Assembly: GCA_011620275.1 (NCBI GenBank) | Contig: WOZK01000030.1 | Coordinates: forward strand, 70,242-134,241 | DNA length: 64,000 nt | Direction: 5' to 3' | Source of the DNA: Candidatus Omnitrophota bacterium | GTDB lineage: Bacteria > Omnitrophota > Gorgyraeia > Gygaellales > Profunditerraquicolaceae | Part shown: positions 25,643 to 64,000 of the stretch, in pieces | Numbering within the stretch: the first letter of the stretch is position 1 | Layout of the letters: each line of letters begins with the position of its first letter | Notes under the pieces: generated by a model | Told to the model about the DNA's origin: nothing | The model's input: only the letters and a program-made list of their open reading frames with translations | The model's database searches: none | Translations under genes and position numbers: made by a program

Positions 25643-25647
25643 TGGAA

Positions 25648-31163: not shown

Positions 31164-34100
31164 TCACAGATAAATATCCGTCATATTGCAAACCCCAGAC
31201 AAACCGATACTTATGAAACTTAATGAAGGCAGTGAAAAAGACATCCCCTGCGTATAGAAAGTGGAACCATTCTCCTCGCCGCGAAAGACTGCGTTGTATT
31301 GTTCAACAGGCCTCCATCCTTGCGCAGAATCCATCCCAGGTTCAAGAAAGCGCGCTGCGTCTTCATCGAATATCCCTACCGCGTCCCTTTCGCTGCACCC
31401 TCCGTCCAACGGGTTAAAAACCTCGGCTAAAACAGCCGGCGTTCTCTTCGGATCAAAATCTTTAATAAGCTCATCATTGCCATTTCTTAACGCTCGGATA
31501 AGCTCTTTATCTACGAATTGCCGGCCAAGAATATACACAACCATCCCGTCGATATCTTTTAATTCCCCTATTTTCCCTTGAGCCTCCATCAACTCGATCA
31601 AAAAGATAAATCCGAGCATCGATTGCGGTTCTCTCCGCGTGCGCAAACGGGTAAAAATATTGATTATCGAAAACATCCTGTCCGCCATATAATACAGGCA
31701 GACAACGTTTTGTATCAAAACAGGTCTGATACAATTCAAAAGAAGCAACCGGATCATACCGATAAACGCCTCCGGCTGGTTGTATCCGGCGCGCTCTGAG
31801 AGATAGAGAAAATCTTTTATTATCCCCTCTTTCTCGGTTTCAGCGAGACTGAATTTACGGGCTATTTTTCCGGCAGCCGCATAATTATCAGGTGATAATG
31901 AAGAAAGGATATTACGCCTGTGGCCGGGATAATCATGCTTAAAAGTGTCGATAGTGCTGTATAATGAAACGGCAATGGAATTTTTTTCTTCGGGAACCGG
32001 CCGATTTTCCGCAAGCACCGCTCCGTCACGATATACAACGGAATTAACCGGCACATAGCGCAGAAAACTCAAATAATCCAGTAAAGTCCTGCCTTTGTTG
32101 TCTCCGGAAAGCGCCTCTTCCGGTAATATTATATGCACCGGCCTGTGCTTATTGAATACGGCATAAACGATAAAGATCCCATAGGCCTTAAATATACAAT
32201 CAAATAATTCTCCTCCTGTCAAAAAGACGGTTATGGGCGTTTCAGCGAAACGCGGACATAATCTATCGGCGGAGCCCCGTATCGCATCGACATCCGTATG
32301 ATAGATAATCCGGGGAATTCTCATACATTCGATTACGCAACCCCAGTCTTTTCCCCACACGTCAAGAGCAGCTATCAATTCATCTTCCGCCGCACGGTGT
32401 GATTCTTTATAATCTGCAACGGTAAATACGCCTATTACCCCTCTTCGCCCGCTTCCTCCATCTGCCACAACCGTGCCGCCGTTAACAACCCGTGCCTTTA
32501 TCATTTCCACGTAAGGCGCAATATCGTTAAGTATCACATCCCCTTGATCGCATTCTCCGCCGTCGCCCTTTTGCCCTTGCCCTTTTTCCGCAAGATTGAA
32601 ACCGGGATGCGTTTTCCTCATCTCAAACGCAACGGTTATGCCGAATTCCCGGGCGATAAAATCTACGTACGGCATGGAGGGTTTTTCCCCCGAATAACTA
32701 AATTTTTTCTTAGCCATAGACACTAATATCTGCCTGTCTAAAACAAGCTTCCCCTTCCTTTTTTCCAAGATTCCTTTCCCACTCCAGAACACGCTTAAAA
32801 TCTTACCGGGAGTGTAGCGGGAATTTGTAAAAACCGATACCGGGATCAGCCTCTTCAGGTATTTCTCATCAAATACAAAAGGCCCTTTTTCCCATTGTTC
32901 CCGTATAATCCTCATTAAAACCGGAATCACATAGTTTTGAGTCGCGGGGAAACTCATGGCTGTATTTTTTGTCAAATCAGGCAAACAATAATAGGTAAAC
33001 ATATCTTTTCCCAGTATTCCGCGCCGCTTTAAAAAATCCTCGAAATTTTTATCAAAAACCCGTAATCCCCATTCACCTACGGAAGAGGTGATCATTCCGG
33101 CGTTAAGCTTATTCAGTTTGTTTTTAATAAAATCGTATTTGCCTTTGGACTTACGGCTGATCTTAAGATATTCCATAACCATTCCCGAAGAAAAAGGATA
33201 TCCCAATTCACCGGATTTTATTCCCGCCAGGATTTCAAGTAAGAAATCCAGCGACCCTCCCGGCAAAACAGACAACTCTTCCCAGAATTTATTTTCAATG
33301 CCCCAAAACCGGCCGTTCTCTATTTCCACAACCGGTATCTTATCCATGCCTTTTAATTCTTCGTATAATCTTATGTCGGCCCGCATCCGGAGCAATTGGC
33401 CATACGTACCGTCAAGCAGGGATTGGTGAAATCTACCGGTAGAAACATATTCGCATAACAGCATTTTATCCGCCTCCAATTGCTTGACTATTTCTGCAAC
33501 TGTTTTCATATCCTCCGCACAACCAAAATGCGAGAGCACATCTTCCCGGGTAAAATCCATCTCCAGGAACATTCCGCATTTTCCCGGGATAATAACCGCG
33601 CTCTGTTCGGCTATCCAGCGTATTACGCTTTCCCGGCATACCGATCCTTTTAAATATGCTTCATCTTCCATTAATTCCCACTCTTTCAATAATTCCCCGA
33701 TAATCCTGATCGTTTTTCCGGACACTTGCCTTGCCGAAAAGTAATTTTTATCCTCCGCGCGCACCGCCGCCAGCATCTCACGCATACGCACGGGAGATCC
33801 GCCGGTTATTTCGAAAATTCTTTTCAAAACATGGGATTCCCGGGCGGATAACGGATGAGACTTTATGCCCGCGATAGTCAACCTTCTCCCGGCATTTTTC
33901 TCTTTAAAGAACTTCATAAAACCGATCAAACGGTTAAACCCGCCGGACCCGCCGGATAAAATCATAGTTTGAAATTTATCCGTAACGGAATACCTCTTTT
34001 CTACAACCCCGCTCCGCTCAAGATTCTCCGCTATCGCCGACACCGCGCTTCGGTCGGCGGGAGTGCGGTTTCCCGGAACAAATTGTTCAAGAATATCTTC

Positions 34101-37100
34101 GATGGTAAATACAGACCTTAACAAAACTTCTGTACCGCCCGAAATTACCACACTGCTTCGCATAACCATCCATTCGATTAAATTCTCTTCACTCAACTCC
34201 TTCTTTGACCGCTCATCAACGGCATCATCCGTAAAACCTCCGGTAACCGCGAATCCGCCGTCACGCTGTCTGACCGCGCGGCTATAATCAATCTGATCGC
34301 ACAGTAATGAATACCGGTCCGATTTTAGAAACAGCAAGAGAGGCTCCTGTCCGCCTTCAGCTCTTATTTCCAGCACAACCGGCCGCGGCCGGTAAAGCGC
34401 CTGAATATCCAACCCGGTAAAATGAATAAGCCAAATATACGCATCGTAACGGTCTGCCATCCTTTTAATGATCCGTGGATACATATCGAGCCCCCGGCAT
34501 ATACGATGCCGCCGGCTTTCTTCGTCCCGGGCTTCTTTTATAAAACGCGTATCAAAGCCGAACTGACTGGTTATCCCGTTGCCTAAACGCGGGACCCTGA
34601 ACCTTCGCAAGGCCCTGTTCCCTCCTTCAGTAAGAACCGGCCTGTATTTATGTATGAAATCTCCCACTCGCGCATCGAAAGAAGAATCTTCCAGGGGGAC
34701 ATCAAGCCCGACCGCTTCTGCCAGATATTCTTTGATGCCCGGATATAATTCCTCGTACCGTTCTTGGGTAATCCCTGCGGCTTGATTAACCGCTTTCCAG
34801 TACCAGAGGAACACCCAATCGGTAATAGTCTTTTGTATATTGATCAAAGCGTTCAACAGCCGCGTGTGATAGGCATGGTCGAAATCGAAAGTAAGCCCAA
34901 AATGCGGATAGACGCGCAATTTCCGCACCAGGGTATCGAGATACAGGGGGAAAGACAAATAAAGATTACTTTGCGCGGAGGCCCCGCACACCGGGCCTTC
35001 AATGAGGATCTTGACGTCCTTACTCACAGACGGATGGTTGTAGATTCGGTGAAACGCCAGCAGCTTATCATCGAAGGACGAATACAACTCGCCCCTTAAT
35101 TCATAAAGCACCACTCCCGCGGGTTTTTCTCTCTGTATGGAAGCAAGAAAAACAGCCAGTTCCCGGCAATAGGATATGTATACGGCAATTTCTTCCGCTG
35201 GAAGCGAAGTTATACTATTAGGAGAATGCACGGAGACACACTCCATGCCGAAATCCTGCCTGATCCCGGCCAAAAGCATCTTCATATTCTCCAGATCATC
35301 AAGCTCCGAAAGAGTTCCTATAAATAATTCGAAAGTGCGAAAATCCAGCCTCCAAAGCCTGCGCGCCTGCTCCAGATTGGCATCCAACGCGCATTTACCG
35401 CTGAATACTACACCTAATTGTCCGGTCCCGCCGTCCTTGTCCTTTTCTTCCCATCCCGCCTTTTCTTCCACCGCTCTTTTATCCCTTTTCCAGGAAACGG
35501 TTTTATATAGCGCATACGCCGCCGCTCCCACGGCCAGTAATATATATTCACATTCCAACATATGTTCACTCCATACCCCGAGATCCTTCACCGCGGAATT
35601 AAGGCTGTAAACCATCAGCAGATATAAATAGCCGTATCCGAACGCCTCTATGGCTCTGTAATATATCTTCTGCCGTTTCTTCTCAATTTCTTCCGGTTCC
35701 CAATTCTTTACCAGCTCCAGCACAAAATACGTAATGACCATACCGGCCGATAAAGCGGCAACCGTCAAGTATGCCCCGTATAATTGCAGAGATACAAAGG
35801 TATTGACCAACAACGCCGGGCCGGAGATCAAAGGAAACGCCAACGGCATAATCCAATAAGGAATACGAGTGAATGCGCAGGGAATGGGAATCTGCGGAGT
35901 GATGTATATGAACAGCAATGTTACGCTTACGATTTTCAGCATTCCCAACGCGGAAGGACTGACAGCCGCTCCGGTATATCCTATAAAGACGTAGAATCCC
36001 CCTATCAAAACCGAAACAAGCAGCGCTCGCCGCACTCCTTCTGTTTTCTGGCCGGCATTCAAGTTCAATCCGCCGGGGCCGGTAATGGCCATAAAAGAGG
36101 CGAGTAACCCGGGATAACTTATAGCCAGGATGTAACCGGCCAGCACGACCACGAAATCCGCCGCATAATCCGCGCCGATAACGGCGAAATAGGGTAAAAA
36201 AGGCGCCCCCGCTATAAACGCCGGAATAAAAAACCCCGTTGCGTGTATCCAGGCCCAGCGCGCGCGAATGCTCACTCTTCCCGCGTACGCGCGCCAGTAC
36301 AGCCTGTCCTTCCAGCCGCCGTCAAGATGTTCTTTCCCGTCCGCATTGGGAATAGGGCCGTTATCTATTAAGAAATGGACGCCGGCTGATGGTAAAGAAT
36401 TTAGCTCGGGCTTAAGGACAGGCGCATTTCTATATACCTTTACCGAAAAAGCAGGCAGCACCATACGCCCATGTTCCCCTGCCCATATTACTTCACTTGT
36501 CGAACCGCATCCCCGAGAAGTAAACCCCGTTAGAGAACTTCGTCCTCTAACGGTTTGCTCTGACGGTGGCATTAAACTACCGTCAGATTGGGAATCGGAA
36601 GACCACCTACTAAAGTCGGTGGCTTTCTCTAACGGGGTAAACATGCCGACACTCTGCAACTCTTCATTCGCATAATCGGTAATTTGGCGATCCGTCGACC
36701 TGATCCGGCTTATATCTACGCACACAATCCGATCCCCGACTTTTCTGTATGCTTCCACCATCGGCAACGTCCAGACGATAATCAACCCGTCTTCTTTAAC
36801 AATCCGCCCAAGCAAGTCAGCAACGTATTTTTTAATATCAAAGTCCCCGGACAAATCCAGCCAGCCGAGGCCTTTTAAGACTAAATAATCGGGCTTCTCA
36901 TCGGTCAAATATCCATTCTCTTTTAATCGCGCCAGTTTTTCTTTAATAACTCCAACTTCTCTCGCATCAACCGCTATATTGATGAATGAATCGAAACAAC
37001 GGATACGTTCATCTCCAGAATTATATTCGCTGTCGAACAGTCCGGAAATACCATTCCTCACGGCCCCTACAGTTTGAGATGCCGCGTCCTTCATTGTCTC

Positions 37101-40100
37101 CGGAGTGATATCATTCCCCCGGGTATCTTCATCGAGATTGACGCTGATAATTATTCCCGTATATGCTTTTTTTCTTGTCGTCAATGCCGCGAAGGGAACA
37201 AAATCGCCTCCGGCCAGAAGATAAATCCCGGTTTTCTTTTCTAAACCGAATTCTGCCACGACTCTTTCCCACAAATATAAATATTGGGTCCAAGCATCTT
37301 TTTTTGTTGGCCGGGCATTTCCGCCGTCCGTATAGTCAGACTCATCTTCCACGGCTGACGCAAGTCCTTCTGCCAGCATTAAGGCATGTTTCTTAATCTC
37401 GCCCTCCGGTAAATGCGGAAGAGTCGTTATGACTTCGTCCTGAAAACCTTTACGGGCAAAGTGATATGTTTCTTCGGGAACCCCCTCGATAGAAGCGGCA
37501 TTGAGGTCCTGGATCATATTAGGAAAGAAATTTTCGAGGAAGTAACCTCCGGTAACTAAATCCAGATACAACTTGGGCGCAGCCAAAAACTCATATCTCA
37601 GCAGGGAGAAAATCTTCAGCCAATGATAAGATGTCCTTCCTATTTCCAGCGCGTAGGGAATAATCTCCGCGGTCTCATTACCGGCTGTGCCGCGGCACAA
37701 CTCGCTCATAATTTTGGCCTGGACATACGGCCACGAATTCAAAGCTGTGAACTCATCACGGCGCATATCCGCCTCCGGCCACTGTCTGCACAAAAGCTGT
37801 TGAAGCGCGGCGTCTGCCGCGTCACTGCCTGTCTGCTCGCCGAACGGCAGTTGTCCATCCGAATCAATCCTTCGACGCAATTCATAACAATGACCGGGCC
37901 TGAAAACGGCTCCGTGTATATCCACCAATATCCGGACATTCCCTGCCGTATTTAGACCAAACGCTGCCGCTGCAGGCTGAATACCGGGTCCGCCGCGAGC
38001 GGTCCAATAATCCGGAATTATTGTTTTATCCGAGAACAAAACTTCTCCCCGGACATTTTCTCTCCGCACATTGCTGTCGGTTACCGACAAGGTTTGAATG
38101 ATCCGATGCAGACTCAAGAAAGGCATATTCACGATAAGCTTACCCTCATACATTACCGCGGACTGCCTGAACATAAGTAACCTGTCTGATTCCAGAGGTT
38201 TTTTCTGCAGAAGCGCGAGAAATCGCGGCATATCGAATGTGCTACCTGCGCGCTTTTCCTGAACGCCGGATTCATTCAATAACGCGAAAATTTCGCGGAA
38301 CATCTCCCGGAACTCATCCCAAATATCCGAAGAAACAGTCAATATTTCTTCCGGGCCGGAAACAGCCGAACGTACTTCCTGATCAATCCGCGCGTTAATA
38401 CGCCGTGTCTCGTGCAGAATATCCTCGATTCCACGAAGCGAATCATCACTTCCACCGTCTTTTTCATCCGGATGCATCGCCATCCAGAAATCGACGAACA
38501 AGTGTTTCCGTAGATGATCAATGGTATGGGGATTGCTAATACGCAAATATGAAAGGAGGAATACGGCAGTGCCGACGGGCAGTGCGGAAGCTCTGCTTCT
38601 CGGGGGGCCGGTTTTACTCTCTAGGTAAAGTCCGAATAAGGCCACGGCTAAAATACCGGTTTTGTTCCGCAGGGCACTCCCGGCAGCAATATAATCTTTC
38701 AATTTCTCGAACTCAGCCGCTGATTCAGGCCGGCTCTCTCGGACGAAACGCGAAAAATCATCCGCGCTCAAACCTCCCGGATTCCCCTGGGGGATAACCG
38801 CGTCTATTCTGCGCGCGCATTCCTCAACAGCCCCGCCGTCTGAAGCCGAATCTTCCTTCACTTTTTTTTCTTCCTTTTCCATTGAATTCACATTCCTGAT
38901 CCGTTCGGAATCTTTTAAAACACTCCTCTTTATTCCTTCATATAACACTTCCCGCAGCCGTTTAACGATTGCGTCTATGAAAGGCGCATTACCATATATA
39001 TCCATAGCCCGCTCGGGATAACCGCTTAATCCCGTTTTAACATTTCTGTTGCCTCCGTCGCCGAAAGTTCTCTTTTCTTCATCCCCGATAAACGGATAGT
39101 CCCACTCTTGCACAAGTGAGCTGTTTATACGCTCTACAATAATACTTCCGGACAAATCAACATTGACTTTCAGCAAACCGTTCAACGCGAAACTAAAATA
39201 TCCCCGGTCTTCATTGCAAAACACAGGGTCTTCATAAACCGCAGATATCACATCATGCAAAAAGCCGGCGTATGTTTCTTGCTGTTGCTCCGATGTACGC
39301 GAAGAAATATGCTCGAGAGATTCGAGAAACCGCTCTCTCTGATAAGAAGCTGCGGGCTTATATCCTTTCTCCTGCAGCTCCGCTTTCACCAGATTATCCG
39401 CACGTAATAGGACGACCAACAGTGTATTGATTATATACTCCAGATCTTCCAGGTCCCTGATGTCCACCGCGGAAAGTCGATTATGTAACACCTCATATAA
39501 TCCACGCGGAATCACCACGGTTACTTCTCTACTCATATCCGGCGTATATCCCTCCTGAAGATTTTCAAGATAGAACCTCCTCTTTGTAAGTATCCGCCAC
39601 AAGCCTTCGTGCTGCTGAAATTCCGCTATGATATTCTCCCAATAGGGATAAACGAAAATTGAAAGATCGCCTCTATAGGAAAGGCCTGTAAGTATAGGAA
39701 AAAACACAATGAGACCTATGGCCATTTCTAAAGGCGTTCCCAACCGGATCAAATATAACCCTATAATCGAATGCATGAACGAAGGCAGAAGAACGGCAAA
39801 CATATCTTTGGCAAGATTTTCCGCGGGCAAACCGCATGTTGACATAATATGATAACAAGAAGCCTGTGCTTGGAGTCCAAGCAAATCATCCTTCTTCCTT
39901 TGGGGAACCGTTGAACTGCGTACAAGTGTTTCAAAATCACCGCGAAATATGAGTTTTTCACCGGCGGGATCAATAAAAAATACGTTCCACCATTCTTCAT
40001 CCCCCGCTATTTCCAAAACCTTTGCTCTATCGACAGCGAGCAAAGCATTCCTGGATTTGAACAGGGATGGGAATAACCTCTCCAATGCCCCTCCTCCCTC

Positions 40101-43100
40101 ATAGCGCGATACGACAATCCGCAGCCGCCTTTGGCCAAATAGTGTCCCGGCGCAATAATGAATAATCTCATGCCCTATACCTATGCCCCAGAATAAAGGT
40201 ATTGCGGCCGCAAGAAACAGCATGACCGATCCCCCTAATCCCAGGCCCCAATGAGCGCTCAGAGAAAAACCCGGTAGCAAACCGGATACGAACCATCCCC
40301 CCGCAATAATCGCAAAAAGCGCCAACCGGGAATAATTGAATGATATCTGCCGCGCGCCCGCGAAATAAAACTTGCGCATAAAGTGATGTGGCCTGGAAAT
40401 CGCTCTATCCCCCGGGTTATCGGCATACGGCCTGCCGCCGTCGCCGTTCTGTGCGCGAGGATATCCTTTCAGCGAGGACATTATATGGTTTGCCAATGTT
40501 TTGCGTTCCCAGAAATTTGGGCTTCTACGGTCGGCTTGCTCATGTTTCAGAATCACCGGCAGAACAATCCGGATATTCTTGCCCGTCGGATCGACATCCA
40601 GAGATCCCATACCGAACTTAAAAAACAGGTAAGTATATTTATTTGTTGGTCTGCTATCTACGGGCTTGCCCGCCGCGTAAGCATCAGCGAGACAAGTTTC
40701 GCCATGGAAGCTTTCGGCGGCGAGGCTCGCGGCTATATTCAGGCGTATATAATCAAGCGGATGCGCTAAAATATGCTCAAGAGCCTCGCCGTCTCCACGG
40801 CTTATCCCGATCAAATCATCGATGATTTCTCTTTTGGAGTCGTCCGAAATACGCGAGAAGATTTCTTCTCCTGAACACCATTGGATCTTATAGTGTGTCG
40901 ACGCCTCACCCCATTTCTCGCTGTATTTTTTTATCCGGCTCAGATAAACAAAGAACCTGCCTACTATTTCTTCTCTGCCGCTGAGAAACAATACTCTCGT
41001 CTGATCGTCATCCCCGCCTTCAGGGCCTAAGCTATCAAAAAACATCAATTCCTTGAATAACGCATCCCCACCCCATTCCTCGTCATTCCACTGCTCTTCA
41101 AGCCAGTTCTCCAGCTCTTGAAGGATAGACGAATAGTTAATAGGGAAATCCCCGTCACACAAATATTCACCCTCATTGATAATCCTGTTTTTCCCTCCGT
41201 CCGGATTATTAAGCCGCCGCTCTTCGCGTCCCACGCCAGACATCCCCCCGGACTTTTCTGCCACCATTGTCAGGATACGCGCAAGCTTTGCCGCCTGCTC
41301 GCTATCACCTTTCTCTATCAATTCCAGGATCCGCTTTTCAAATCTTTTGGCAATAAATCTTATGTCATCGTCCGGCAAAGAATAGAATTCCCCGAATCTG
41401 CAAATAGCGTCTAAAATAACGGTGTTATCCGAACCCAGCAGGAACGGAAATAGCGCCCGTACTTCCCTCCCCTCCAGATAAAGCAGATCGCGCGGCCTGC
41501 GGTCCTGCATGATCAGCAGGCTTACTTCATGGGATAGATCATTCACTCTTATCCAGGTGTCCTCAGCAGGTTCACGCCGCAGTTCTATAAGAGAATCTAT
41601 AAGTTCAAGGAACAATCCGGACAATTTCTGCTCCCATTCAGCCCCGCCGTCAAACAATTCCTCTGCCCTTTCCAGACGCGCCGTCTTTAGCGCCCTTATT
41701 ACCGTCTCGGCCTCCCCGGCTATCGCCGATATTTCATTGTCGAAGTAGAGCTCATCCGCCTGTCCGCAGGAAGCCGCGGCTCTTTCTATGGAATCAACTC
41801 CCTGCGGACGCAGAAGCTCCATTTTGAGAATAAGACCTATCTTCTTCTCCCAAGATAGGCCTGCTGTCGAACCAAGAAACCGGCGACATTTCATCCGCCC
41901 CTGCGGCGCTCTCAAAGGTGTGTTGCCTTCGAGTAGATCATACACGTCTTTTTCATACGCTTCCGCGGAAACGCTTAAAAGATCATAGGTGAACTGTTCC
42001 AACGCCCCCTCCCCGAATTCTTCCGCCGATCTACGGTTGAATCTGCTGTACGGCGTCATCAAATGCTCTCCCTGTTTGCGCAAGAGGATACCGCGAAGTT
42101 CATAGTCGCGTCCCCATGCGGAATAGATCGCTATCTTCGGCGGCCAATCCACCCAGGAAACATGCCCGGATATGAAAGAAGCAAAGGAACCAAGATAACT
42201 GTCCGCGGCGATATGCCTGGAATTTATGCCGTCAAGGTAGTATTCATATGAAAACCGGCTGCGGGAAGAAATCAGATGAACGATATGGGCGTTCTGCAGC
42301 GGCAATGTCTGTAAAAGACTATGAATTTCAGCGACGCAGAAAGAAGAGTCGTCGATATAATACAATGCGGGCGGGGCGCGCGAAGAATACAACTCTGCGG
42401 CCAGCATTTTCGCCTTCTTCCCTTCGCCATAACCGCAGAAACGGATATTTCCCTCCGGAATATCAATGCCGGCGCTCTTTAATACCGCGAGAGTCCCCGC
42501 TTTCGTGCTTTCATCACGGCCGGTCAGAACGACAATTCTCAAGCCAAGGCGTTCAGCCGTCTTTAGAAGATGATCCGCCCCTTCCGTCATCCGGTAAATA
42601 CCCAGGCGCACTCCCAATCTCTCTACATCAGTATATTCTTTCATGGCTACGCTTTTGAGCCAATCCACCTGTTCCTGCATCCAGATCCCGAACTCTTCCG
42701 GCTCTTTGATCTCCCCGGAGCTGTATATATTGTTCTGTATGCTGTCCTTGATCATATAATACCGCCTGCGTATAAAATCCGACGAAGGGTAATCCAGTGT
42801 CGTCCGGAGCAAAGTGTCGTCCAGGTCCACGATAAGCACCCCGCCGCTTACAGCAGTCCTCTCCATATTGCCGGCCGCTTCAAAAAGGCTCCCGGTGGAA
42901 AAACTAACCGGGCCTGCCCCCCCGTCATTTTCGCACGAGCGAATACTTGGCCTTCCGATAGGCCAAGGTAAAATCCGACACTCCGCGGAATAATCTGCTC
43001 CGCGTTTTTGCGCGTAGGCCGGCAGATTATTTATGCTCCTTAGATAACCGATCATACCGGAAAGAATAGCGGCCTCCCTGGTGTCGTAGTTTTCTAACGT

Positions 43101-49100: not shown

Positions 49101-52100
49101 CCCGAGAGTAAGCTTGCGCGCTCCGGCAAATTCACGCAAAGCCTGAAAGCTTTCCTTCAGCTTAATACTAAGCACATCCTCTTCGGATAAAGAATAATCT
49201 TCGCTCTCTTGCGCGTCAGATACCGCGGCGATCGACGCTTGTGCGACGTTGTGCCAATAGAGGGCGAACAGCAAATCACGTAAACTGAGCGTCTGTCCGG
49301 CCGCGGAATAAATATCACGGCCTTCCTGAAGAACTCCTTGGATTAAAAGCACTAATTCGTCCTCGGCCTCTTTCCGGGTTTGATATGCCAACCCTTTCGG
49401 ATATAAAAACCCGCCGCAATAATGACGCTGCGCTTTTATTTGAAATAAAGAGCCTTTTCTACAGGCTTCTTCCAAATATTCCGCATTACTATCCGTATAA
49501 TAGGACTCAATCTCAGCCGCAATGATGCCGATGGTAAGTGTAAGGCTGACGCGGGCACTCACTTTTTCATCAGGGTCGTATACCGTATACACAAAACCCT
49601 TCCGATCGGAATGCCAATAAACAATCATCCCGCCTTTCCTGGCCTGTTCCAGAAACACACGCGCGCGCGCGTCAAAATGAGCCCGCTGGGACGCCGTGTT
49701 CTCCCCGAAATAGGGGATATCATTATAAAACGCCTGCCTGGCAAGGCTGCGCAGAGGTTTCCCGTATTCAGAAGACCAGCGTAATGGAGCAGGCCGGCGC
49801 CCGGGATTTTCACAGAATACCGCATCCCACATATTCACCGCCATATATAAATCTCTATACCGGTCCTGCTTGACAAACCGTTCAAGATCGGCGCCGTAGA
49901 GATCCACAAGGACATTCAAGGCCTGTTCGGGGATCTTGCCGGAAAGAATCAAGACCTCAGGAGATGTACGCAGAAGAAATTCTTTGAGTGCCCGATTCCT
50001 CTCACGAGACAATATCTGCCGCAGACGCGGTAGAATATTTTTGTTATCGGCCCCTCCATCTTTACCTGTTCTTTTACGCCCTCCGGCCGGTTCAGTATGC
50101 CCGCCGTTTTTTTCTTCTCTTATACCTGTATTTAGCCGGGGGGAAATAATTCCTTGCGCGTCAGAGCCCTTCCGAATTTCTAACTCATATCCGCCGTCCT
50201 TGGTATTCTCTAAAGGCAGATTCAATACTGTTTGCGAAAATAGTCCTAAAATGTCCGTCTGGTTCCTTTCTCCGTTATATACTATTCCTTCAATAATCTT
50301 CACCGCAATATTGTTCAACCATTCCCCCTCCGGTCGGAACCCAAACCTAAGATAAAATATTAACGCGCCGGCCCCTAAAGCATCCGGGTTGTTAATCTGG
50401 CAGGAAGGAATAATAAATCTGTCCAACATGTATTCGTTATTCTCAAAAATACTGTTTACGACCGCCAGCCGCGAAGGAAAGATTTCCCTTGCCCTGTGTT
50501 GTGGCCTGTATTCCTTAAAAAAGTGCATACCTAAAGATAGGTCTCCTCCAAATAAATGGCTGAGACCGTAACCAATTATTTTCTGTGTGTTCTTATCCAT
50601 AAAAATCTCGAGAAATCCTTCCAAGTTGATGTCTCTTTGATCCGGGATTAGAACCAAAGAAGTATTTTGGTCCAACTCCGCCCGGTAAATAGTTTGAAGA
50701 TCCAAGAGACCAAGATTCGCCAAACTGTTTTTTTGTCTAAGTAATTCCACGGCAGGGATGGATAGAGTTTCAGCAGATAATCCGGTTATTTTATTGACTT
50801 TTATCTCACAAGGACGACGCAGTAATTCTCGCATCTCTTTGGGAAGCATCCACATCCCTAATTCCCAACGTAAAGAAGGAATCCCCTGACCGGAAGCAAG
50901 GAGCGGAGGAAATTTTCTCCCCCCATCCATTCGATCTGTCACCGTTACTCTCCCACTTCCCAGCACACCTTCCAACGGACACGATGTCTTTTTTATATTA
51001 CCCCCGTCTAAATTGCCGGAGACACCAGCCTGAGGTCGGGGTTTGTCAGGTAACTTTAAGGCTATATAGAAACAAGTTATCGCAAGCCCCCAGCATGTTC
51101 CTGCCGGAAAATCTAAACCGGAGAGATACGATAATAAACCTAAAGGTATAATCATGCCTGCCAGGATTAAATATAGAAGCGGACTCTCTTCCTTGGACTT
51201 TTCCGCAATATCATCTTCGCTTATAAACAATAATACCGCGGCCCCGAATAATGTTCCGCCCCATACTCCCTGAATCACAAAACCCGCGAGCATAAATATA
51301 AAACCCTTGATTGCGTGAACACCTCCGTCACTACGGACTGCTCCCGAAGATCCATTGTCTGTGTCTTTCCGCTTTATTTGCGCTTTCCACCATTGCGGCA
51401 GACTGGAAACCGGGATGTTTATATCATATTTCTCCAATTGTTCCAACCCGGTCCAATCACGTTCCCATAGATGCAAGATGGCGGGGGAAGCTATCTCTCC
51501 CATCACATACCAGTCGGGAAAACATTCCACAAAAAATTCATATAAACGTGAATGTATTAGCGAACCATAACCTTTGTGTTGGAACTTCCAGCTCATTGCC
51601 AGATTCTTCAGCCAGAGAGTTTTGTTTTTATTGACCTTTCCCGCTTTTTTCGAGAAAGGAAAATTAGTAAATTCAAATAAGAAAAGAATACCTTTATTGC
51701 CCGCGCCCACTTCATGAACATAAATAGGATTTGTCCCAATCTGCTCATATCTCGCCTGCTCAAGGATTTCCTTTTCAGCAACCAGCAGCCGGATCTCAAA
51801 AAGCTCCTTTTCACCTATTATCCTGACATTCTTCATATACGCGTAAACCAATGTTCCTTGACCCGCGGTATATTCATATCTCCCGTTCCAGAACGAGGCA
51901 CGACCTCCCTGAGGATAATCTTCACGTATTAGTACTCCTAAAGGTCCCCCGTTCTTAGATTCCAACTCCTGCCCCAAACGCCCCAGCCAGGAATAATTCT
52001 CAAACATATCCGCCCGGGCGCCGCCGTCAAAACCGAAAGATTCATCTCCCGGCTGATATATCCCTCCCCTTTCTCTATACCGTTTCAACAACGGCTGAAG

Positions 52101-55100
52101 AATATTGCAGGGAATCGCCCAATGCAGCTCTCTCACAGGCGCGTCTTTCCGCAACAGTTCCTTGACATAGGAGGAACTGACATTTGTATAAACATACGGC
52201 ACCAAGAATACTGTCGGTATCGAAGGAGCCAGTAAAAGGTTGGCCCAGGCAAGCGGAAGTTCGCTCTTTAGATCCTTATAGTCCCTGACCCCGCGCCGAA
52301 ACACCCCCGCGCCAAAACTGCGCGCGCAATCAACCGTCAATCCGTCGTAACAAATAACCTTTACATTAGTAATCCCGGCGGTTTTCAGGCAAAATTCGAT
52401 CATCGCTTTGTTCTCCTGCCGCGAAAACCACTGCTTCCCCTCCTTATCCGGGTTGGGACCGATACCGATGTAAACAGTATCGAACATCGCCACCGCCCTG
52501 CGCACTACTTCCAGGTGCCCGTTGGTGAAAGTATCGGCAGACCGGGAATCGTCCTTAAAATACCCCGGATACACGGCAATTATGCCTTTGCCTGTTGCAT
52601 CGCGAATGGGTTCCCGGGAAAACCGTAACGTTCCAGATGTGGATAGCGAAGACTGCCGTTCCCCGCCGTCACGGCTATTTTTGCGCAAACTGCCGGCCGC
52701 TTCTCTTTTAGCGGAAAGACGATGATGGAAAACCTTGAACCATCCGCGGTGTTCCTTTAGGAAATTATACGCCGCACTCAACGCTTCCTGAAAACTCAAA
52801 TCATTTTCGATGCCCGGGTAAATTATACGGTCTTTTAGACACTCCATAGTCTTTGCCGGAGAATATCCTTCCTGATCAAGCCGCATACAGAGTTTCGCTA
52901 ATAGAACAAGATTATCCTGGTACAAACTAACATCCCCTTTTGAAAAGCGCGCGGCCAAAGGAACTCCGATCTCCAGCACTTTACATATATGGAATATTCC
53001 GGCGTCCAGTAATCGCTCCCCCATATCAACGGCAGGTTTGACCCATTCGCCGTTGTATCCCTCTAAGGCCGCGAGCATCTTTGGCAGGGCTCTTTCACAT
53101 AGATAGTTAATGCTTATTCTTAAGGTCTGCGCTTTTTCAATCAATCCGCTTATTGGCGAAGTCGGAGGAATAACAGAGATTCGTTCGGTGGTTTCCCCGC
53201 CGTCTTTTTGGGCCTTTTCCTGTTCCTGCCTACTCACCTCTGGAAGAATACGCCTGCGTATCTTTAAGAGGTATTTTTTCTGACACGGAACCCCAGCCTT
53301 CCGTACTGCCTTATACAAATCATCGCCATTCAAGTCGCCTTTCTTCTCGATCACGTCTAATATTATTTTCTTAAGCAAATAATCTCTCGCTTTACAACAC
53401 AAATCCTTCCAATCCTTAAACCAGTCGTTACGGCATTTATGAAAAGCAATTTTAATTTTCGGGTCGTGTTTAAATACTTCTGTTTTAGAAATGGGACTTG
53501 CCTTTCTACTTGGCCCTCTCTGAGCGCGAATTTGTTCTAACGCGGCGTTAACCCTTTGAAATAATTCTTCTTGAGTCTTTATATCCTGATAAATATCCTC
53601 TTCATTAGTTATTTGCAATATAAACAACCGGAACCGGCAGTCTAAACGATATTTTCCTCCATATGGAGCAGGCGACAACAACTTTTCTCCTCCGCAATCA
53701 AGCTTGCCTACCAGCCTGCTGAAGAATTTGTTATTCATTAAAATGTAGGAAAGCTTCCCGTTCCACCTTTTAACTTTGGCCACGTAGATCTTCTCATTTG
53801 GTTTGGTGTTATGCGCGACAGCTGTCAACACCTCCCGTTCATCTTGCGATAGCCCGTTCCAGAGCGGCATGAACATCTCAGAATCTACCGTTTGCTCTGC
53901 CTCATGCGTTCCGCCGTCAAGAACATCCATACTCCCTTTTTCCACACCGGCCGGAAAATCAGGCTTACCATCCGCTCTATACTTCCGTATCTTCATCTTT
54001 GATATCTGGCCGATGTACAAAAGATACAGGCCGGACAACAGTTCCCGGAGTATAGGATCCATGAAAGACTCCGGCGTGTAACCGCGGGAAAGAGCCACGG
54101 TTATTACATATGGCTTTACCTTTTTCTCTTCCAGAATCTTACAGATTCCTCGGATCTGCTTTCGTAATATCCCCAATATGCCCTCTATCTCCGCTTCTTG
54201 CTTGTCTTCAATCGGGCTTATATTTTTATCCCAGAAGTAATCGGCGTCGAAATCGAGGATCACCGGTTTGCGGTTCAGGCTGAAATCCGGCAGTTCATCC
54301 GTATAAACCTTGTGCACTTTTATTCTACGCACCGCGCCTACCGTTATATCCCATCCTGTATTTTCTCTGAAATCCATCACCCAACTTCCTTCTTCCAAAG
54401 GATGAACCGGCCGGAAATAAATCACAGGATGCGTTCCGGTGCCATTTTTAACCGTCAGGTCAGCAACATACATATCGATCTCCTTCCGCTCACTGATAAG
54501 AAAATTGGCGAAATAACGATAGCTGTTGACGGGTTTGAATATGGGCGAGACATCGGGATTCCAATAAAGATATTTTCTTCGACCATCACGCATATACTCC
54601 GGCAATACCCAGTATATCTCATCGACATATCCATCATATACGGCCGGGGATATAAATTGATCAAAGGCGGGGCGTCTCCGGGCGACGGCCTTGATACTTC
54701 GAGACAACGGGTAAAAATCCCAAATGTCGCACATATCCTGATGCGTGTCAAAATGTATCAAAACAGCAGGATTGGTAATACGCTTCAGGAGCCTGCCGAT
54801 CTCCCAAGATGAAAACGCGTCCCCATGGTTTTCCATAAGAAACATCCGCGGAGCCTTGGAAGGACCTTGAACCTCAAAAATGCTATCCCTCCCTGCTTGC
54901 AAAATCGTTTTTACTAAAGAGGACCGGCTAAAGCTCTCCCTGCCGCCGCGTATAGTGTCTCTTACGGCCGAATCTACCGCTTCTGTACTTACCATCCCCT
55001 TTTTTAAAGAAGCATCTCTTGGAGTCACTAATTTCCCTTTGCCGCCGTCCTGTTCACGGGCATAACCACGGTAATTCTGCACAGCAGCCGCTCCGCCTTC

Positions 55101-58100
55101 TTTTTCCAGAATGTTAAGCATATTTTCGAAAGAAGAAACACCCATTATTTCCCGTATTCTCCGCAACCGTTGTAAATACAAACCCCTTTCGCTTCCGCTC
55201 TCATCCGCTGCCAGCCGCAATAACAATGTTCCCGCCTTCTTTGTGTTGCAATAACATCCGGCGAACCAGCTTCGGAATGCACCCTCATCATCCGTCATTC
55301 TTATTTTCCTGTCTGGAGACAATGGTTTGAACCCGAAAGCTTCCCTTATTCGGCACATCTCAGCGATATCAATCATTGACCAAACCAGAGGAAAAGGGAA
55401 TTTTTGCAGCAGGCCGGTTCCCTGTTTTGAGAACAAATAAGCGATATTAACAGCGGCCAAATGAGGATTATTTTCCGCGATTAAGCGATTCCTGTCCTTT
55501 TCATTCAACCGGCAGCAGCCGCTTTTTTCCAGGTAATTGATCAATACTGCATTCATAATGCCGTCTAAAGATACCCGTCTAAAACCCCAGACGGGTAACT
55601 TACTCCACGTATCGCCGACCAAATCGGACAATTCGTTGGAAGAGAATAAAGCGAACACATCCGGGAAAATATCCGGCAGATGTGCCGGAGGAATGCTGGA
55701 ACCGACGCTCACCGAAGTTTGCCGGGTCATACTCTTTTCCGCTCCTGTCAAAAACGCTTTCAAAAATGATTTATTTGAGCGCACGGCGCGGAAAAACTCT
55801 TTATGCGGGCCGCAATCACCGAATAGAGCAAGCAGTGAATAAAACAAAACCGTTATACTAAAGTCAAACAGCCGTATTTCTTTATTCTTGCCGCTGATCC
55901 CGGTCAAAACGGCAAGCTGTTTCAAATCAAATAACGCCTCATGCAACTCTATATTAGAGGTGGAGTGCTGATCGTAAGTACGGGAGAGATATGTTGTGGA
56001 CGTACCCGAATCTCTAAAAAGAGGGGTGCGGATACCGGGGGTAACATATATTGCACAATCCGGCGGGGTATTGGGAAGCAAAGATATGGCAAAAAGAAAC
56101 TTTTGTTCAATCCCGGGATTACTGCGGCTTGCCGGCATATCCAACTGCCCGCCGGCAATCTTACCGGCGCGATACGTAAACCTTCTCTCCCAAAAACGGC
56201 TATTGCTGAATATAAGAGGAAAGACTTTCTCCCCTCCGTCTCTGCCCGGATTTTTCGCATCCTTCGGAGAACGTCTTGTTACCTTACACCCGTATTGGAC
56301 CACAATAACGGTAATTTGGGCAGACGTCTTTTCAAAAGGCAATCCGGACAAGATTCTTTCCGCTAATGATACCGCCTCTAGATCAACAATCCCTTTTCCG
56401 TTTACATATCTTTCGAATGCCAACAGGTATTCGCCCAGGGCTTCCGCGTTGGTGTTCTTTTTTCTGCTTCTATCAGTCAAGATGGCATCTATTCCCGGCA
56501 TATAATTCATCAAAGACAACCGATGAATAAACGTATCCCAAGCGGTATCCTTTTCTATAATACGCCGCATTTCCTCGGAGAATTTGGCGCGCAGAAAGTG
56601 GAGTAGCCCTTCTCCTAACTTCTTGTTGAGATACGCCAGATCACAGCGTTGTGCGCTTAACGCCTGCCGGAAAAGAGGCAGCCAAAAACCGTAGAATTCC
56701 GAGTCTTCTCCGGACAATCTGAATAACTTTCTCTCATCGAAAACCCAGGCTTGTTCCGTTCCATTGACGACAGTATATCCTTTGTCAGACAGTTCTTTTG
56801 CTTTTGTCGGCGGGACCTCCGTCACTATTCTGTCGATATATTCAAACTTGCCGCTATTTAATTGTGAAAGTAACTCTTTCTGATTAACGATACACATATT
56901 GCCTTTTGTTGAATATCCGACTCCCAGACCCTTCAGGGACGTAAGCAATTTTTGCGAACTGCGCAATTTTAAATCAGCATCCCCGCCGTCATTTTTACGG
57001 TTATTCCGCGCGCCGGTTGCTCCCATTTCTTCGAGAACGCGTTGAAAAGAAGGGTTTTCTTTCCTTAAACTCAATTCCCCGGCTTCCACAAAACCCCTGA
57101 ATGAGCCTTCAGCAGCTACTTCCCTCATTATTCTTTGCAGTTCAATCAACTCACGCTGCAAATCCGATGCCGTTTGCCCGGAGAAAAAACCCAACACCAC
57201 TTTTAGATTCTCTAAAGTGGGGGGTATACGATAACCGGCAAATAGGCCGGCTAACGGATGCTGAACAAGAACACCCGGTTGCAGCTTGTTGAACGTTTCT
57301 TTTGGTCCATAAGGCAGTGAATACGATAACGTGATCAGATATTCAGAGATTAATCCTACATCGGCGGCATTCCACACCGCTTCCCAGATACGCACTTCTT
57401 TATCATCTAAAACTGCCTGTATTCGATCAATCCCTCTATGAACGGAACGTAAAGAATTCAAATGAAAAAGAGCTGATTTGAATGCGCGCATCCTAATTTG
57501 CATATTTATCTTTTCATCAAGTTCTTTCCTGAACGAAATAAAGTTCTCTTGATCGAAACTCGGTGTTTCTGTCTCGACTAACCCCGTGCCGCAAGATACC
57601 GGAAAAATCCCTTCGTCATTTTCACACTGGTAAAGACCTGCCTCTCCTCTAAGGCAGGGTGTTATTCCACTAGGCCCTGGTAAAATCCAGCGCTCTGTGG
57701 GATAGTCTGCGCTCCTTTCATCGCCAACGCCCGCGTGAACATGCGCCGGGCGTTTACGGGATTTCCCTGATTTTACGGAAGCGGGACACTCATTACGCCG
57801 GGAGTTTTTCTTCCACTCGTTGTATTTCTGTGTCAGTAAATCATCGTAGTATTTACCGCCGGGATTAGTCAGTTTTTTCACCCAGGCGTAAAAGGCGTCA
57901 TACGTGATCCTTTTTCCATTAGACCGCAGAAGTTCGAATCCTTTATGGGGGTTATAATCGCTCTTTTTAAGCGCTGAAACAACTTCTTCAGCGGTCAATC
58001 TGTTTTTGTTGTAATCACCGGCGAACTTCTTGTCGTATCCAGGCTCCCCCGGTGTGGTCAACCTGTAAACCACTGTGTCCATCACGCCGCGGCTTACCAA

Positions 58101-61100
58101 CTTGCCATTGGAACACAAATGCCTCAAGGCTGCATTTGTACGGAAACCATTCTCCCGCATCGCTTTTTTTATGTCCTCCCGCGAGGCCTTACCGGCCGGC
58201 ATATTCTTGATACCCTGTACAGGCACAGATACCTTTTTGCCTGGATCCCCGGATTTCTTAAGATGATCTCCGAATAATCCGAATTCCTTTTCCTTAGCAC
58301 GGAATTCCGCGCTTTTCTTGCGTAATCTTCGCACCCTCGTTTTGAAAGTATTCAGCTTGACCACATATCCTTCCTTTTGAAGCAAAGCGAGAGCGCGACT
58401 ACCGTGAAAATTAGTTCTCTCCATGCAATCAAGGATAACTTCATCCGGGACTCTGTCGGCATAGAACTTCTCTTTAACAGCAGCTTTGTGACGTTCGATG
58501 ACTTCTAAATACTTGGGGTCTTTCCTCAACTGCCGATAATGATGTTCACTGATCCCCAGACGCTTAATTGCCGATTCTATAACGCCTCCGGCATCCGCAA
58601 GCGCCTGGTCAAGCTCTTGCGGGGAAGGGCTGATAGAAGGAGGATAAACTCTTTTATTCCTATCCCTGCCGATAATAAAATAGTACCCTTTACCTTCTCT
58701 GTCAGAAACAGGACTGCCTTCTTTATCCTTGATAATCCGGACTGCTCTTACTCTGCCATCTTTGATCACCACCTCGGCCTCTGCTTGAGGAAATCGAGAG
58801 AAAGTTTTCCATGTGCGGTTGCCCACATAGACTGCTCCGGAAGGAGGCAATATGAAATTCTTTAACGTATGGTCCTGCAATTTACTTAATTCTTTTCCGG
58901 ACAAATGGAACCGTTTCCCCTCCATCGCACTTGTCGCATTATTCCAGACCTCAAACGGGACAGACATCTTATACCGCCCGTCCCCGCCGTCATTGTTAAG
59001 AACTTTTTGTATAATCTTCCCCAGAAAAGCGGCGTCTCTTGCCGCAACCCTCTTAATATTCTCAGGGGTAGATTCATATTCAAGGATAAATACTTCCGAA
59101 AAACCGCGTTCTTTAATCAATATTTTCAATACTTCTTCCAGCGCGCCATTCAACGAAAGGGCCTTATATAAAGGAAGATGGATTTCTTTTGTCATCTGAT
59201 TAAGGAAATCGCTTCCATGAGCGTGAACTACCGCTATGGGAATATCCGTATCAAGTTCACGCAGAAATTTATCAGGAGCGCCTTGCGGAGAAGCCAAAGC
59301 ATGTCCCAAATCCAGCGTCATCCCCAGATGTTTTTTCTCCCGGGAGCTTAAAATCCCGGATAAAGACGCGAATGTCGAATTCATATCAGCCGCGCTATGC
59401 CAGTCCGCGTTTAGCTTTATTGGGATCTGATGGACATTTTCTATGCTCAAAACAACCTTTTCCCTTTCAGCTAACCGGACCAAAGGAAGAACACTGTCGG
59501 TGAATAGTTTTCCCGGAGTAGTCAAATGCATAGTAACCGCGCGCGCGCCGACTCGTGAAGCAAATTCAATTGTCTCCCGAATCGCCCGCGTATTTGCCTG
59601 TTCTTTAACAATATCGACATGCGGGGCGTGACAGGTCAAATAAACCGCGTTTTCTTCCGATGCCGCCTTTAGCGCGTCAACCGTGCTTGGACTGACAGAA
59701 GAAGGCCTGTATCCCGAAAACGCTATTTCAAGGCTGTTCAAATTTCCCCCGATCTCATTAACGGCTTTCAGCAAAGGAATAATGCCGCTGGCATCAGCGC
59801 CTTTCCAATAAGACGGTCCGGTTTTAAGCTCATATCCGCCGTCTTCTTTATCTCCTTCACCTGCCTGTTCACAAGGTTTATTCCCAAGCATAAGGTGCGC
59901 TGTAATCATAATAACATCTTCATCCGCCGGCTCATCCACCGGGCTGATTTCAATATAGAACTCACCTTCTCCAATCTCCTCCGGAGAGCAAGATTCCGTA
60001 TATCCGGCTTGCCGGAAGGCATTCAATATTTCCTGATATGCCGGCTCAACACCGCCAAACGCTTCCGCATGGACAACGAAGGTAATAGCGTTGGATAATT
60101 CCGATTTTCCTACACTGGATAATGCCGCTCTTCTGAGAATAAGCAGGCTGGAGGCCAGGTATTCATCAATCCCCAGATACCAGTTGCTTTCATCCGGCAT
60201 TACCACTGAAGGAATATTAAACAGCCACTGCAGCTCTCCGACCGGAATCTCAACCGGCACTTCGGTGATCACGCCTTTTTCATCGATCTCAATCCATTTA
60301 TTTCCATTCTCATAGTCTCGATCCGGAAAATCCTCTCTGCGGTGCGGCCCTATGGACTGCTCGGAGTATAAAGCACAAAGGATCACTGCCCAGGAGAAAT
60401 CGAGTTTATTGCGCAGTTCCAGAGCCTTTCTGGTTGTCAAGGTCATCTCCGAAATTTTTTCCCGCATCTCCTCTACCGCCCTCTTTGCTTCTGTCAGGCC
60501 TTCTTTATTCCTGGTCAACCACACATTTTTCTGCATTATTTCTCCCATCCGCCTATCCATCGCTTCAACATCAGACAGTTCTTCTCCCGGAGAAACACGG
60601 TATAATACTTCAGGAATAGCTATACCCGCCAAAGAAAGCTCTTCTTTTCCAAAAACATACTCCTTCATCGCCATAGCCGCGTTAAAAGCCATCTGTAAAA
60701 GCTCGGATAAGGAATTACTCGCCATGCGCTCTGCGCCATGAAGCCCGGTATATGCCGATTCTCCCAAAACAAACAGCCGTTTGAGCAAAGATCTGCCGGA
60801 TTTGTTCACGGGCGCGCCTCCTATGGTATAATGTGCCGCCGGCGCAATCCTGATCAAGTGTTCGGCCTCGTTAAAATTCTTGTCGCGCTTTTTAATCTCT
60901 TCATAGAGATTACCGAAATGCTCCTTAAAATCTTCCATATCGGGTATAAATAGGTAAACATATGGCTTGCCCGACTTCTCCATTTCCTGCAATATCGCCA
61001 GAGAAACCACATAACGTTCCGCCATTTCCAGCTTAGGGTCGTATTTATGCATGAAAAAGACCGGATTTCCGTCCTCATCAGGCTCAAGAACACAAAGCCG

Positions 61101-63962: not shown

Positions 63963-64000
63963 CCTCTGCCGCAGACGGACATTGTCCGATTCACCCGGTT

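Follow-up and report, generated by a model that had tools for sequence, protein, structure and literature searches.

Exact Asp-Gly-Gly junctions divide a giant open reading frame of Candidatus Omnitrophota into modules of whole-protein size

The window analyzed here, a 64,000-nucleotide (nt) stretch of contig WOZK01000030.1 (assembly GCA_011620275.1, positions 70,242 to 134,241) from a Candidatus Omnitrophota bacterium, carries on its minus strand a giant open reading frame (ORF), which is an in-frame head-to-tail chain of at least 38 ordinary-protein-sized units with hydrophilic linkers containing the tripeptide Asp-Gly-Gly (DGG) between them. DGG occurs 37 times in this ORF, with 4.2 expected and 4.1 ± 2.0 in shuffled sequences, is by far its most enriched tripeptide, and divides it into 38 pieces, with a spacing from one DGG to the next (median 300 amino acids (aa), interquartile range 200–445) akin to that of ordinary bacterial proteins. 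This punctuation into whole-protein units is the organizing feature of the ORF and was absent from the first-pass annotation, which had been made from the sequence alone. A giant multi-enzyme ORF is in itself an already known kind of gene in this phylum, and the DGG junction motif is apparently unreported. The modules can be read directly from the sequence, and we lean, on balance, toward the view that they form an operon-scale polyprotein that would be cleaved at DGG. The ORF and its junctions, the latter located by a tripeptide search and all on the minus strand, are as follows.

31164-63998, minus, giant ORF, C-terminal 10,944 codons plus TGA stop (stop-free frame; the relative L002 extends upstream)
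63897-63905, minus, DGG at aa 32
63474-63482, minus, DGG at aa 173, kept in L002
62931-62939, minus, DGG at aa 354, kept in L002
62403-62411, minus, DGG at aa 530
59835-59843, minus, DGG at aa 1386
58983-58991, minus, DGG at aa 1670
56982-56990, minus, DGG at aa 2337
56232-56240, minus, DGG at aa 2587
55041-55049, minus, DGG at aa 2984
53910-53918, minus, DGG at aa 3361
53196-53204, minus, DGG at aa 3599
52662-52670, minus, DGG at aa 3777, kept in L001; mosaic breakpoint 1 aa off in P0017
52020-52028, minus, DGG at aa 3991, kept in L001; breakpoint 11 aa off
51321-51329, minus, DGG at aa 4224; a membrane block begins 3 residues on
51000-51008, minus, DGG at aa 4331, kept in L001
50919-50927, minus, DGG at aa 4358, kept in L001
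50190-50198, minus, DGG at aa 4601, kept in L001
50052-50060, minus, DGG at aa 4647
47904-47912, minus, DGG at aa 5363, kept in L001; breakpoint 8 nt off
47580-47588, minus, DGG at aa 5471, N-terminal edge of module 20; L001 breakpoint 3 nt off
45777-45785, minus, DGG at aa 6072, boundary of modules 20 and 21
44697-44705, minus, DGG at aa 6432, C-terminal edge of module 21
44151-44159, minus, DGG at aa 6614; P0017 passes directly from here to aa 8387
42918-42926, minus, DGG at aa 7025
41643-41651, minus, DGG at aa 7450
41193-41201, minus, DGG at aa 7600
40434-40442, minus, DGG at aa 7853; L001 homology begins 1 nt ahead of this Asp codon
39051-39059, minus, DGG at aa 8314
38832-38840, minus, DGG at aa 8387
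38451-38459, minus, DGG at aa 8514, N-terminal edge of module 30
37320-37328, minus, DGG at aa 8891, C-terminal edge of module 30
36315-36323, minus, DGG at aa 9226, N-terminal edge of membrane module 32
35427-35435, minus, DGG at aa 9522
34254-34262, minus, DGG at aa 9913
32556-32564, minus, DGG at aa 10479
32454-32462, minus, DGG at aa 10513
31398-31406, minus, DGG at aa 10865

Enrichment of DGG is absent from the 24 ordinary proteins of the window (2 observed, 3.1 expected), and it recurs in the relatives of the giant ORF, both in the close ones (10 observed and 0.7 expected in L001/P0001, 10 and 0.8 in L002) and in independent Omnitrophota giants that are rich in DGG and share only 26–35% identity. 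The counts in further relatives are:

P0007, 14 DGG observed, 1.3 expected
L004, 20 DGG observed, 2.3 expected
L005, 20 DGG observed, 2.2 expected
L007, 18 DGG observed, 2.4 expected
L008, 12 DGG observed, 1.8 expected
L010, 6 DGG observed, 0.8 expected

Nearly all long relatives and loci have DGG as their most enriched tripeptide or close to it, and in a pooled set of 52,297 aa it was found 142 times with 17.4 expected. In the same set, the one-residue variants NGG, EGG, SGG, GGG, DGS, DGA, DAG, and DSG were at or below expectation, and Lys was favored 4.1-fold at position −1. Hydrophilicity is marked in the 12 residues before DGG (z = −5.0), and neither the amino acid nor the nucleotide sequence around the motif shows a flanking consensus. 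Very short "modules" between two DGG occur at three places on the minus strand, with lengths of 27 aa (50928-51008), 46 aa (50061-50198), and 34 aa (32463-32564).

The exactness of the motif bears on the alternative that the giant is a single uncleaved, membrane-anchored multi-enzyme chain, in which DGG would be a specific hinge, docking, or modification site (Asp-Gly isomerization or a cross-link of the Lys-Asp type) and would help neighboring modules to fold and act independently. We regard this alternative as rather unlikely. The preference for Lys at −1 fits it, but a generic flexible hinge would be expected to tolerate NGG, SGG, GGG, DGS, and DGA, and is argued against because exact DGG alone is enriched. 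The 27–46-aa spacers between paired DGG also speak against an uncleaved chain, since they recall the spacer peptides of viral polyproteins.

Not every relative uses DGG. P0012 (5,048 aa, from the Joint Genome Institute (JGI)), L009:2-21520, and L011:2-21436 share module 20 or 21 without DGG enrichment and instead carry a recurrent motif, [IV]-[AS]-[AS]-S-P-[VIL], near the equivalent boundaries, as seen by k-mer enrichment only; P0012 has 14 SP[IV] sites, one of them 24 residues ahead of its module-21 homologue. Junction motifs that differ between lineages in this way ([AS]-S-P-[VIL] vs. DGG) are expected if the motif co-evolves with a dedicated protease. In another locus, L013, the tetrapeptide EGLG occurs 5 times with 0.19 expected.

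The units between the junctions correspond to whole proteins. The enzymes, other domains, and membrane blocks recognized in them, the latter called from hydropathy alone, are listed below.

60297-61964, minus, NadB-like flavoenzyme (L-aspartate oxidase type, complete domain), aa 679-1234, in module 4 (aa 530-1385); PDB 5kxj 2e-49, Pfam FAD_binding_2 5.7e-36 and Succ_DH_flav_C
59022-59762, minus, xylose-isomerase-like TIM barrel, aa 1413-1659, filling module 5 (aa 1386-1669) with DGG 27 aa before and 11 aa after; Pfam AP_endonuc_2 1.2e-16, PDB 3wqo
54573-54842, minus, UPF0489 domain, aa 3053-3142, module 9; Pfam 4.4e-08
52074-52577, minus, complete phosphopantetheine adenylyltransferase (PPAT/CoaD), aa 3808-3975, module 12, also present in L005, P0005, and P0009; Pfam CTP_transf_like, PDB 3nd5 2.4e-20
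51051-51320, minus, membrane block of module 14, aa 4227-4316, about 3-4 hydrophobic helices (hydropathy scan)
45786-47588, minus, module 20, aa 5471-6071, uncharacterized, stand-alone homologues of 619-677 aa; DGG-bracketed in most independent DGG-type giants
44706-45785, minus, module 21, aa 6072-6431, candidate for the processing protease, with a Cys-His-Asp domain of transglutaminase/papain-like type and a further domain at the C-terminus
42459-42836, minus, weak HAD-like phosphatase domain, aa 7055-7180, module 24; Pfam Acid_phosphat_B 8.8e-06 and Hydrolase 9.7e-04, both under the gathering score
39675-40331, minus, module 27 membrane block, aa 7890-8108, in which HEIIH occupies aa 7943-7947 (40158-40172); hydropathy and motif
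37329-38459, minus, module 30, aa 8514-8890, uncharacterized; P0008 homologue has DGG at both ends
35718-36233, minus, membrane block of module 32, aa 9256-9427, about 6-7 helices (hydropathy scan); L010 homologue DGG-bracketed

Several of the enzymes that the first-pass annotation had proposed were recovered. The NadB-like flavoenzyme and the PPAT-like enzyme are well matched in Pfam or the PDB, the TGc assignment agrees with the invariant Cys-His-Asp triad and the fold matches of module 21, and the HExxH motif is the HEIIH of module 27. The HAD match is present in weak form, below the gathering score, and of two proposed TIM barrels, the xylose-isomerase-like one stands, whereas a second was not confirmed by any search. 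The profile-hidden Markov model scan that the annotation had suggested, run at permissive settings over every unannotated module, returned nothing credible beyond NadB, the TIM barrel, UPF0489, PPAT, and the weak HAD, and no PDB relatives were found for the last 3,495 aa. The annotation's description of unrelated, non-repetitive folds strung together agrees with the occurrence of each Pfam family only once and with a self-BLAST of the ORF that detected no internal repeats (E ≤ 1e-3).

Alignments with stand-alone proteins place the ends of modules at DGG. P0011, P0013, and P0014, stand-alone proteins of 328–352 aa with an initial Met, each match module 21 over its whole extent, from 5–9 residues past its DGG up to the next DGG. 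Similarly, stand-alone homologues exist for module 20, one of them with a signal peptide, and five distant giants have a DGG no farther than 19 residues from each of the ends projected for this module. Modules 30 and 32 are also bracketed by DGG, as is the PPAT module 12 on its C-terminal side. None of 24 Pfam envelopes holds an internal DGG, compared with 11.9 expected under uniform placement (P = 7e-6), and membrane or signal-anchor segments start within 45 residues after DGG in 13 of 33 cases vs. 12% expected (P = 8e-5). Module sizes fit family sizes (SecA 845, CoaE 207, CDF transporter 289, and CheR 324 aa), and in an AlphaFold2 model of module 21, built from a six-sequence alignment (predicted local distance difference test score 79), both DGG-proximal ends (residues 1–6 and the final 8) are disordered. 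A full-length SecA (845 aa) and a CDF cation-efflux transporter (289 aa) were observed as DGG-delimited modules of a giant ORF on a 474-kb metagenomic contig (L007:2-18211). As in a polyprotein, the chain is made of complete-protein units (stand-alone homologues, module sizes), and a short conserved motif lies in flexible linkers (DGG enriched 8-fold, in a hydrophilic or disordered context, and conserved across lineages). The end-to-end matches to stand-alone proteins also weigh against a single uncleaved chain, and so do SecA, CDF transporter, and signal-peptide-like units, which normally need their own termini or oligomeric states.

At the nucleotide level, the motif is biased in its codons. 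In the window ORF, 34 of the 37 Asp codons of DGG are GAC (31% elsewhere in the ORF) and 22 of the 37 first-Gly codons are GGC (25% elsewhere), with GAC-GGC at 22 of the 37. The ORF has a general preference for C-ending codons before GGN (71% GAC in non-motif Asp-Gly, 47% GGC in xGG), and when six lineages were pooled, the first-Gly codon was used as in the xGG control (p = 0.53), leaving a modest excess of GAC (85% vs. 70% in the D-G control; p = 0.008). Because these controls remove most of the nucleotide bias, the selected object is the peptide Asp-Gly-Gly, and DGG is selected at the protein level.

The giants are also reshuffled at the level of modules, and DGG marks many of the seams. Between close relatives, blocks of 89–96% identical DNA are broken by large in-frame insertions, deletions, and module reorderings. 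DGG is no more than 45 nt away from 7 of 12 breakpoints (P = 2e-4) and no more than 15 aa away from 11 of 24 (P < 1e-4), and several breakpoints coincide with it exactly. For example, P0017 carries the same modules as window aa 3776-8505 in another order, with aa 6482-6617 directly joined to aa 8387-8505, and contains a second, divergent copy of module 21; the seams of this rearranged protein are exactly at DGG. One linker, MAMHPDEKDGG, is present at two junctions in otherwise unrelated surroundings, and this pair is a footprint of linker duplication or recombination.

45777-45809, minus, linker MAMHPDEKDGG copy 1, 32/34 nt identical to copy 2, surroundings unrelated
38451-38483, minus, linker MAMHPDEKDGG copy 2, 32/34 nt identical to copy 1

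Such a pattern could arise if the junction were primarily a DNA-level one, with GACGGCGG as a microhomology or recombination site for in-frame shuffling and the DGG peptide as a by-product, an explanation that we consider improbable. The GAC and GAC-GGC counts, the breakpoints exactly at DGG, the duplicated linker, and the module-level mosaicism among close relatives are all in keeping with it. Against it, the codon bias mostly reflects the general C-ending preference before GGN (D-G 70–71% GAC; xGG p = 0.53), third positions vary across lineages (GAY-GGN-GGN) so that only 6 fixed bases are left, flanking nucleotides are not conserved, and breakpoints in linkers are also expected from selection on viable fusions.

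Several other readings of the motif were considered and rejected. A DNA or RNA element had been suggested by the GAC-GGC bias, most of which the context controls took away. Internal translation starts with the DGG codons acting as Shine-Dalgarno sequences are not in agreement with the presence of GGAGG at only 10 of 37 sites, with no in-frame start codons after them, and are also contradicted by the canonical AGGAGG-type sites that the genome's real genes carry. For 2A-like ribosome skipping, no conserved upstream peptide was found and NPGP is absent, and a repeat protein was dismissed on the empty self-BLAST.

The window ORF is the C-terminal part, 10,944 codons long, of a real giant Omnitrophota gene. 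Its frame is stop-free over the whole coding region (31167-63998), ends with a TGA stop (31164-31166), and is open at the right window edge, so the N-terminus and 5′ end lie beyond the window. A single stop-free ORF of at least 32.8 kb, as the first-pass annotation had reported, is therefore real, although its figure of 10,932 aa counts from the first in-frame ATG at 63962 and is not the length of the frame, and no strand was named there. Stops number 607 and 691 in the two remaining frames of the strand; with a composition-based stop probability of 0.057 per codon, a stop-free run of this length has a probability of ∼1e-278. The standard genetic code applies because all three stop codons are in use among the 24 neighboring genes (TGA 12, TAA 9, TAG 4). 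The frame is open over the whole length of the homologues L001 (JGI) and L002 (an NCBI metagenome-assembled genome (MAG)), which are independent assemblies, and P0017, P0003, and P0001 match ∼3,400 residues of the window ORF with an identity of at least 55%. Stop-freeness at this probability and its retention in independent assemblies bear out the earlier claim that the coding sequence is kept by selection. All 10,432 nt of L002 are stop-free and reach ∼2,970 aa upstream of the window edge (85% protein identity), and because of this continuation, the complete gene is probably at least 13,900 codons long. WD40 repeats stand at the start of this upstream part (L002:1-400, ∼2,970 aa upstream of the window edge), a module of ∼120 aa (giant aa 62-181) is present there twice, and L002 contains a run of N.

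We give almost no credence to an artifact, whether a chimeric assembly, a pseudogene, or a non-coding, unexpressed frame. The frame is known here from the assembly alone, G + C at third codon positions (GC3) is 49% in the ORF vs. 65% in its neighbors, and most modules lack a database homologue, all of which could be taken to favor an artifact. The improbability of the stop-free run and the stops in the other frames argue against one, as do the full-length, well-conserved NadB and PPAT domains, the independent assemblies that keep the frame through large indels and rearrangements, and published giants of the phylum, which have been assembled on complete long-read genomes, with peptides of one detected (PMC10066038; bioRxiv 10.64898/2026.06.07.730766).

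The polyprotein reading, toward which we lean, is favored because an exact, protein-level, lineage-conserved tripeptide lies in flexible linkers between complete unrelated proteins. Under it, the giant gene would be translated as one chain holding an operon's worth of proteins, a sequence-specific endopeptidase would cut at or beside DGG and release the individual proteins, and the DGG linkers would double as points of module gain, loss, and reshuffling between strains. Candidates for the protease are two modules of the ORF itself, module 21 (Cys-His-Asp, transglutaminase/LapG-like) and the membrane module 27 (HEIIH); its gene could also lie elsewhere. Module 21 may be a processing protease: C6131, H6170, and D6190 are invariant in six sequences at 21–29% identity, and its fold matches are all to the transglutaminase-like/papain superfamily (LapG/SseI-like). 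Like LapG and the BTLCP family, it has a Cys-His-Asp triad on a papain-like core, and unlike them it has an extra C-terminal beta-rich domain; it has no Pfam match to TGc or BTLCP (PF01841, PF06035) at E ≤ 1, the only hit being a spurious RTE1 (E = 0.19). Its relatives are rare (P0001, P0002/P0017, P0011-P0014, and P0020 only). The HEIIH module 27, without a Pfam match, may be a second, weaker candidate, and a search downstream of the giants of the window, of L007, and of L010 gave no conserved neighboring protease.

Several observations count against cleavage and so in part for a single chain. Pfam gave no recognized peptidase family in the window ORF and no recurrent one among the other giants examined. 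Most of the giant fragments examined, all of them partial, showed no module 21. Some junctions are without DGG; L004 and L010, for instance, pass straight from module 20 into the following domain. No depletion of DGG could be measured among the ordinary window proteins (2 vs. 3.1), a sample too small to be telling. Cleavage itself is a prediction from sequence. The literature treats these giants as single chains anchored by many transmembrane (TM) helices (bioRxiv 10.64898/2026.06.07.730766). On general grounds, an uncleaved chain is further favored by the multi-enzyme fusions AROM, CAD, and FAS, which are well known.

Placement of the gene in the Omnitrophota is taken from its nearest relatives (85–96% identity), which are partial proteins and contigs of NCBI "Candidatus Omnitrophota bacterium" MAGs and agree with the Omnitrophota-like origin first proposed. 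P0001/L001 share nucleotide blocks of 89–96% identity with the window, L002 and L003 (MAG SO_2017_LW3_111) are 85% identical to the giant ORF in protein sequence, and further close partial relatives are P0002 and P0017 (NCBI MFA5430416.1, 5,213 aa). All long relatives with a source name are annotated as Omnitrophota. The search for homologous giant ORFs in related genomes, also suggested in the first-pass annotation, found them in Omnitrophota MAGs and at metagenomic loci. An exhaustive HMMER search of 1.84 billion representatives with modules 20–22 as queries gave only 16 relatives, and a module-20 profile scan of metagenomes retrieved 13 loci, several of them stop-free across the full 21.5 kb retrieved, on contigs of up to 838 kb. 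In a word-indexed search, aa 7853-9225 matched P0001 solely, module 21 alone matched nothing, and a module-21 profile matched P0011 only.

Giant ORFs are a known hallmark of the Omnitrophota (PMC10066038; bioRxiv 10.1101/2023.11.21.568195), and "multi-enzyme metabolic cluster" giants of up to 147,155 aa have been defined as a class (bioRxiv 10.64898/2026.06.07.730766), so the architecture, which the first-pass annotation did not recognize, had in fact already been described. Like the members of this class, the window ORF exceeds 10,000 aa (10,944 codons, 5′ end open), lies in an Omnitrophota genome as judged by its nearest relatives, contains many Pfam families with no dominant one, each present once and without repeats, and has interspersed TM segments in the form of three hydrophobic blocks (hydropathy only); it is likewise mostly dark matter and poorly conserved between genomes. 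Unlike the published giants, it has its whole-protein units marked off by exact DGG. No match to the Archaeovorin/dockerin-type hallmarks (dockerin PF00404, C39 PF03412, and SecA PF07517) was found in the window part of the gene (10,944 aa, E ≤ 0.01). Tandem arrays of the Ig, cadherin, or RTX adhesin type were not found in the window ORF by self-BLAST (E ≤ 1e-3) or Pfam, nor were Pfam matches to the condensation, adenylation, carrier, ketosynthase, or acyltransferase domains of nonribosomal peptide synthetases (NRPS) and polyketide synthases (PKS). The giant-gene papers treat these proteins as single chains or speculate on cleavage, with one calling the cleavage points unknown (Nielsen & Lui 2026, bioRxiv 10.64898/2026.06.07.730766; Seymour et al. 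2023, PMC10066038; West-Roberts et al. 2023, bioRxiv 10.1101/2023.11.21.568195). The junction motif, the equivalence of module and whole protein, and a polyprotein with defined sites were not reported in these papers or in full-text searches, a scope that excludes the Velamenicoccus paper of Kizina et al. (2022).

The gene lies in an ordinary chromosomal setting, with PilZ and an MsbA-like ABC exporter and then rpsB-tsf-pyrH-frr downstream on the same strand and LpxB on the opposite strand. The genes named in this neighborhood are:

30680-31003, minus, PilZ protein
29094-30272, plus, LpxB
26950-28740, minus, MsbA-like ABC exporter
23803-26538, minus, rpsB-tsf-pyrH-frr
22384-22911, PTS EIIA
21138-22400, CofD-like protein
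19118-20848, PtsI

Composition and codon usage differ strongly within the contig between the giant ORF (GC 47%, GC3 49%) and the 24 flanking genes at window positions 730-31003 (GC 53%, GC3 65%).

The Omnitrophota commonly carry giant ORFs of 10,000 to 147,000 codons. In one giant-gene paper, structure prediction for each product was blocked by missing cleavage-point information; the authors could not split the giants because cleavage and its sites could not be told. DGG provides the first concrete, testable candidate cut sites and a rational way to split the giants for the prediction of structure and function. It also allows their membrane topology to be re-read, since a figure such as "147 TM helices in one chain" could be the sum over many separate membrane proteins. 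If the giants are cleaved, they would be a cellular analogue of viral polyprotein expression, with fixed stoichiometry and without internal translation starts, and a possible source of a new sequence-specific protease. A wider proposal, which we put forward tentatively, is that some Omnitrophota make operon-scale cellular polyproteins containing enzymes, transporters, and even SecA, with a lineage-specific junction (DGG here, [AS]-S-P-[VIL] elsewhere), a dedicated endopeptidase, and junctions that serve as hot spots of shuffling.

To our knowledge, operon-scale polyprotein expression has so far been known only from viruses and a few toxins. Among the latter, the multifunctional-autoprocessing repeats-in-toxin (MARTX) toxins are secreted proteins of 3,500–5,300 aa with RTX-like repeats and a cysteine protease domain (CPD, family C80), which is activated by inositol hexakisphosphate and cuts after Leu. 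Like them, the window ORF is large and made of unrelated modules; MARTX linkers are unstructured and are cut by the embedded cysteine protease, and the mosaic content is reshuffled between strains. Unlike them, it has no repeats or CPD match, it contains housekeeping-type enzymes and membrane proteins, its motif is DGG, and its cleavage is predicted. Gly-Gly sites in viral polyproteins, such as LXGG of the nidovirus PLpro, GG-X of the African swine fever virus protease pS273R, and the sites of adenain, are cut by dedicated cysteine proteases. The window ORF resembles these polyproteins in having whole proteins in one ORF and a short, exact, lineage-specific Gly-Gly motif in flexible linkers, and it differs in being a far larger, cellular, chromosomal gene near rpsB-tsf-pyrH-frr, with Asp instead of Leu or X before Gly-Gly and no homologous protease found. 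In AROM, CAD, FAS, and NRPS/PKS, the linkers between units are not conserved, and the units serve a single pathway as parts of a single working chain. The window ORF likewise has several catalytic units in one reading frame, whereas its modules are functionally unrelated (NAD and CoA biosynthesis, membrane, and uncharacterized) and are joined at a strict junction tripeptide.

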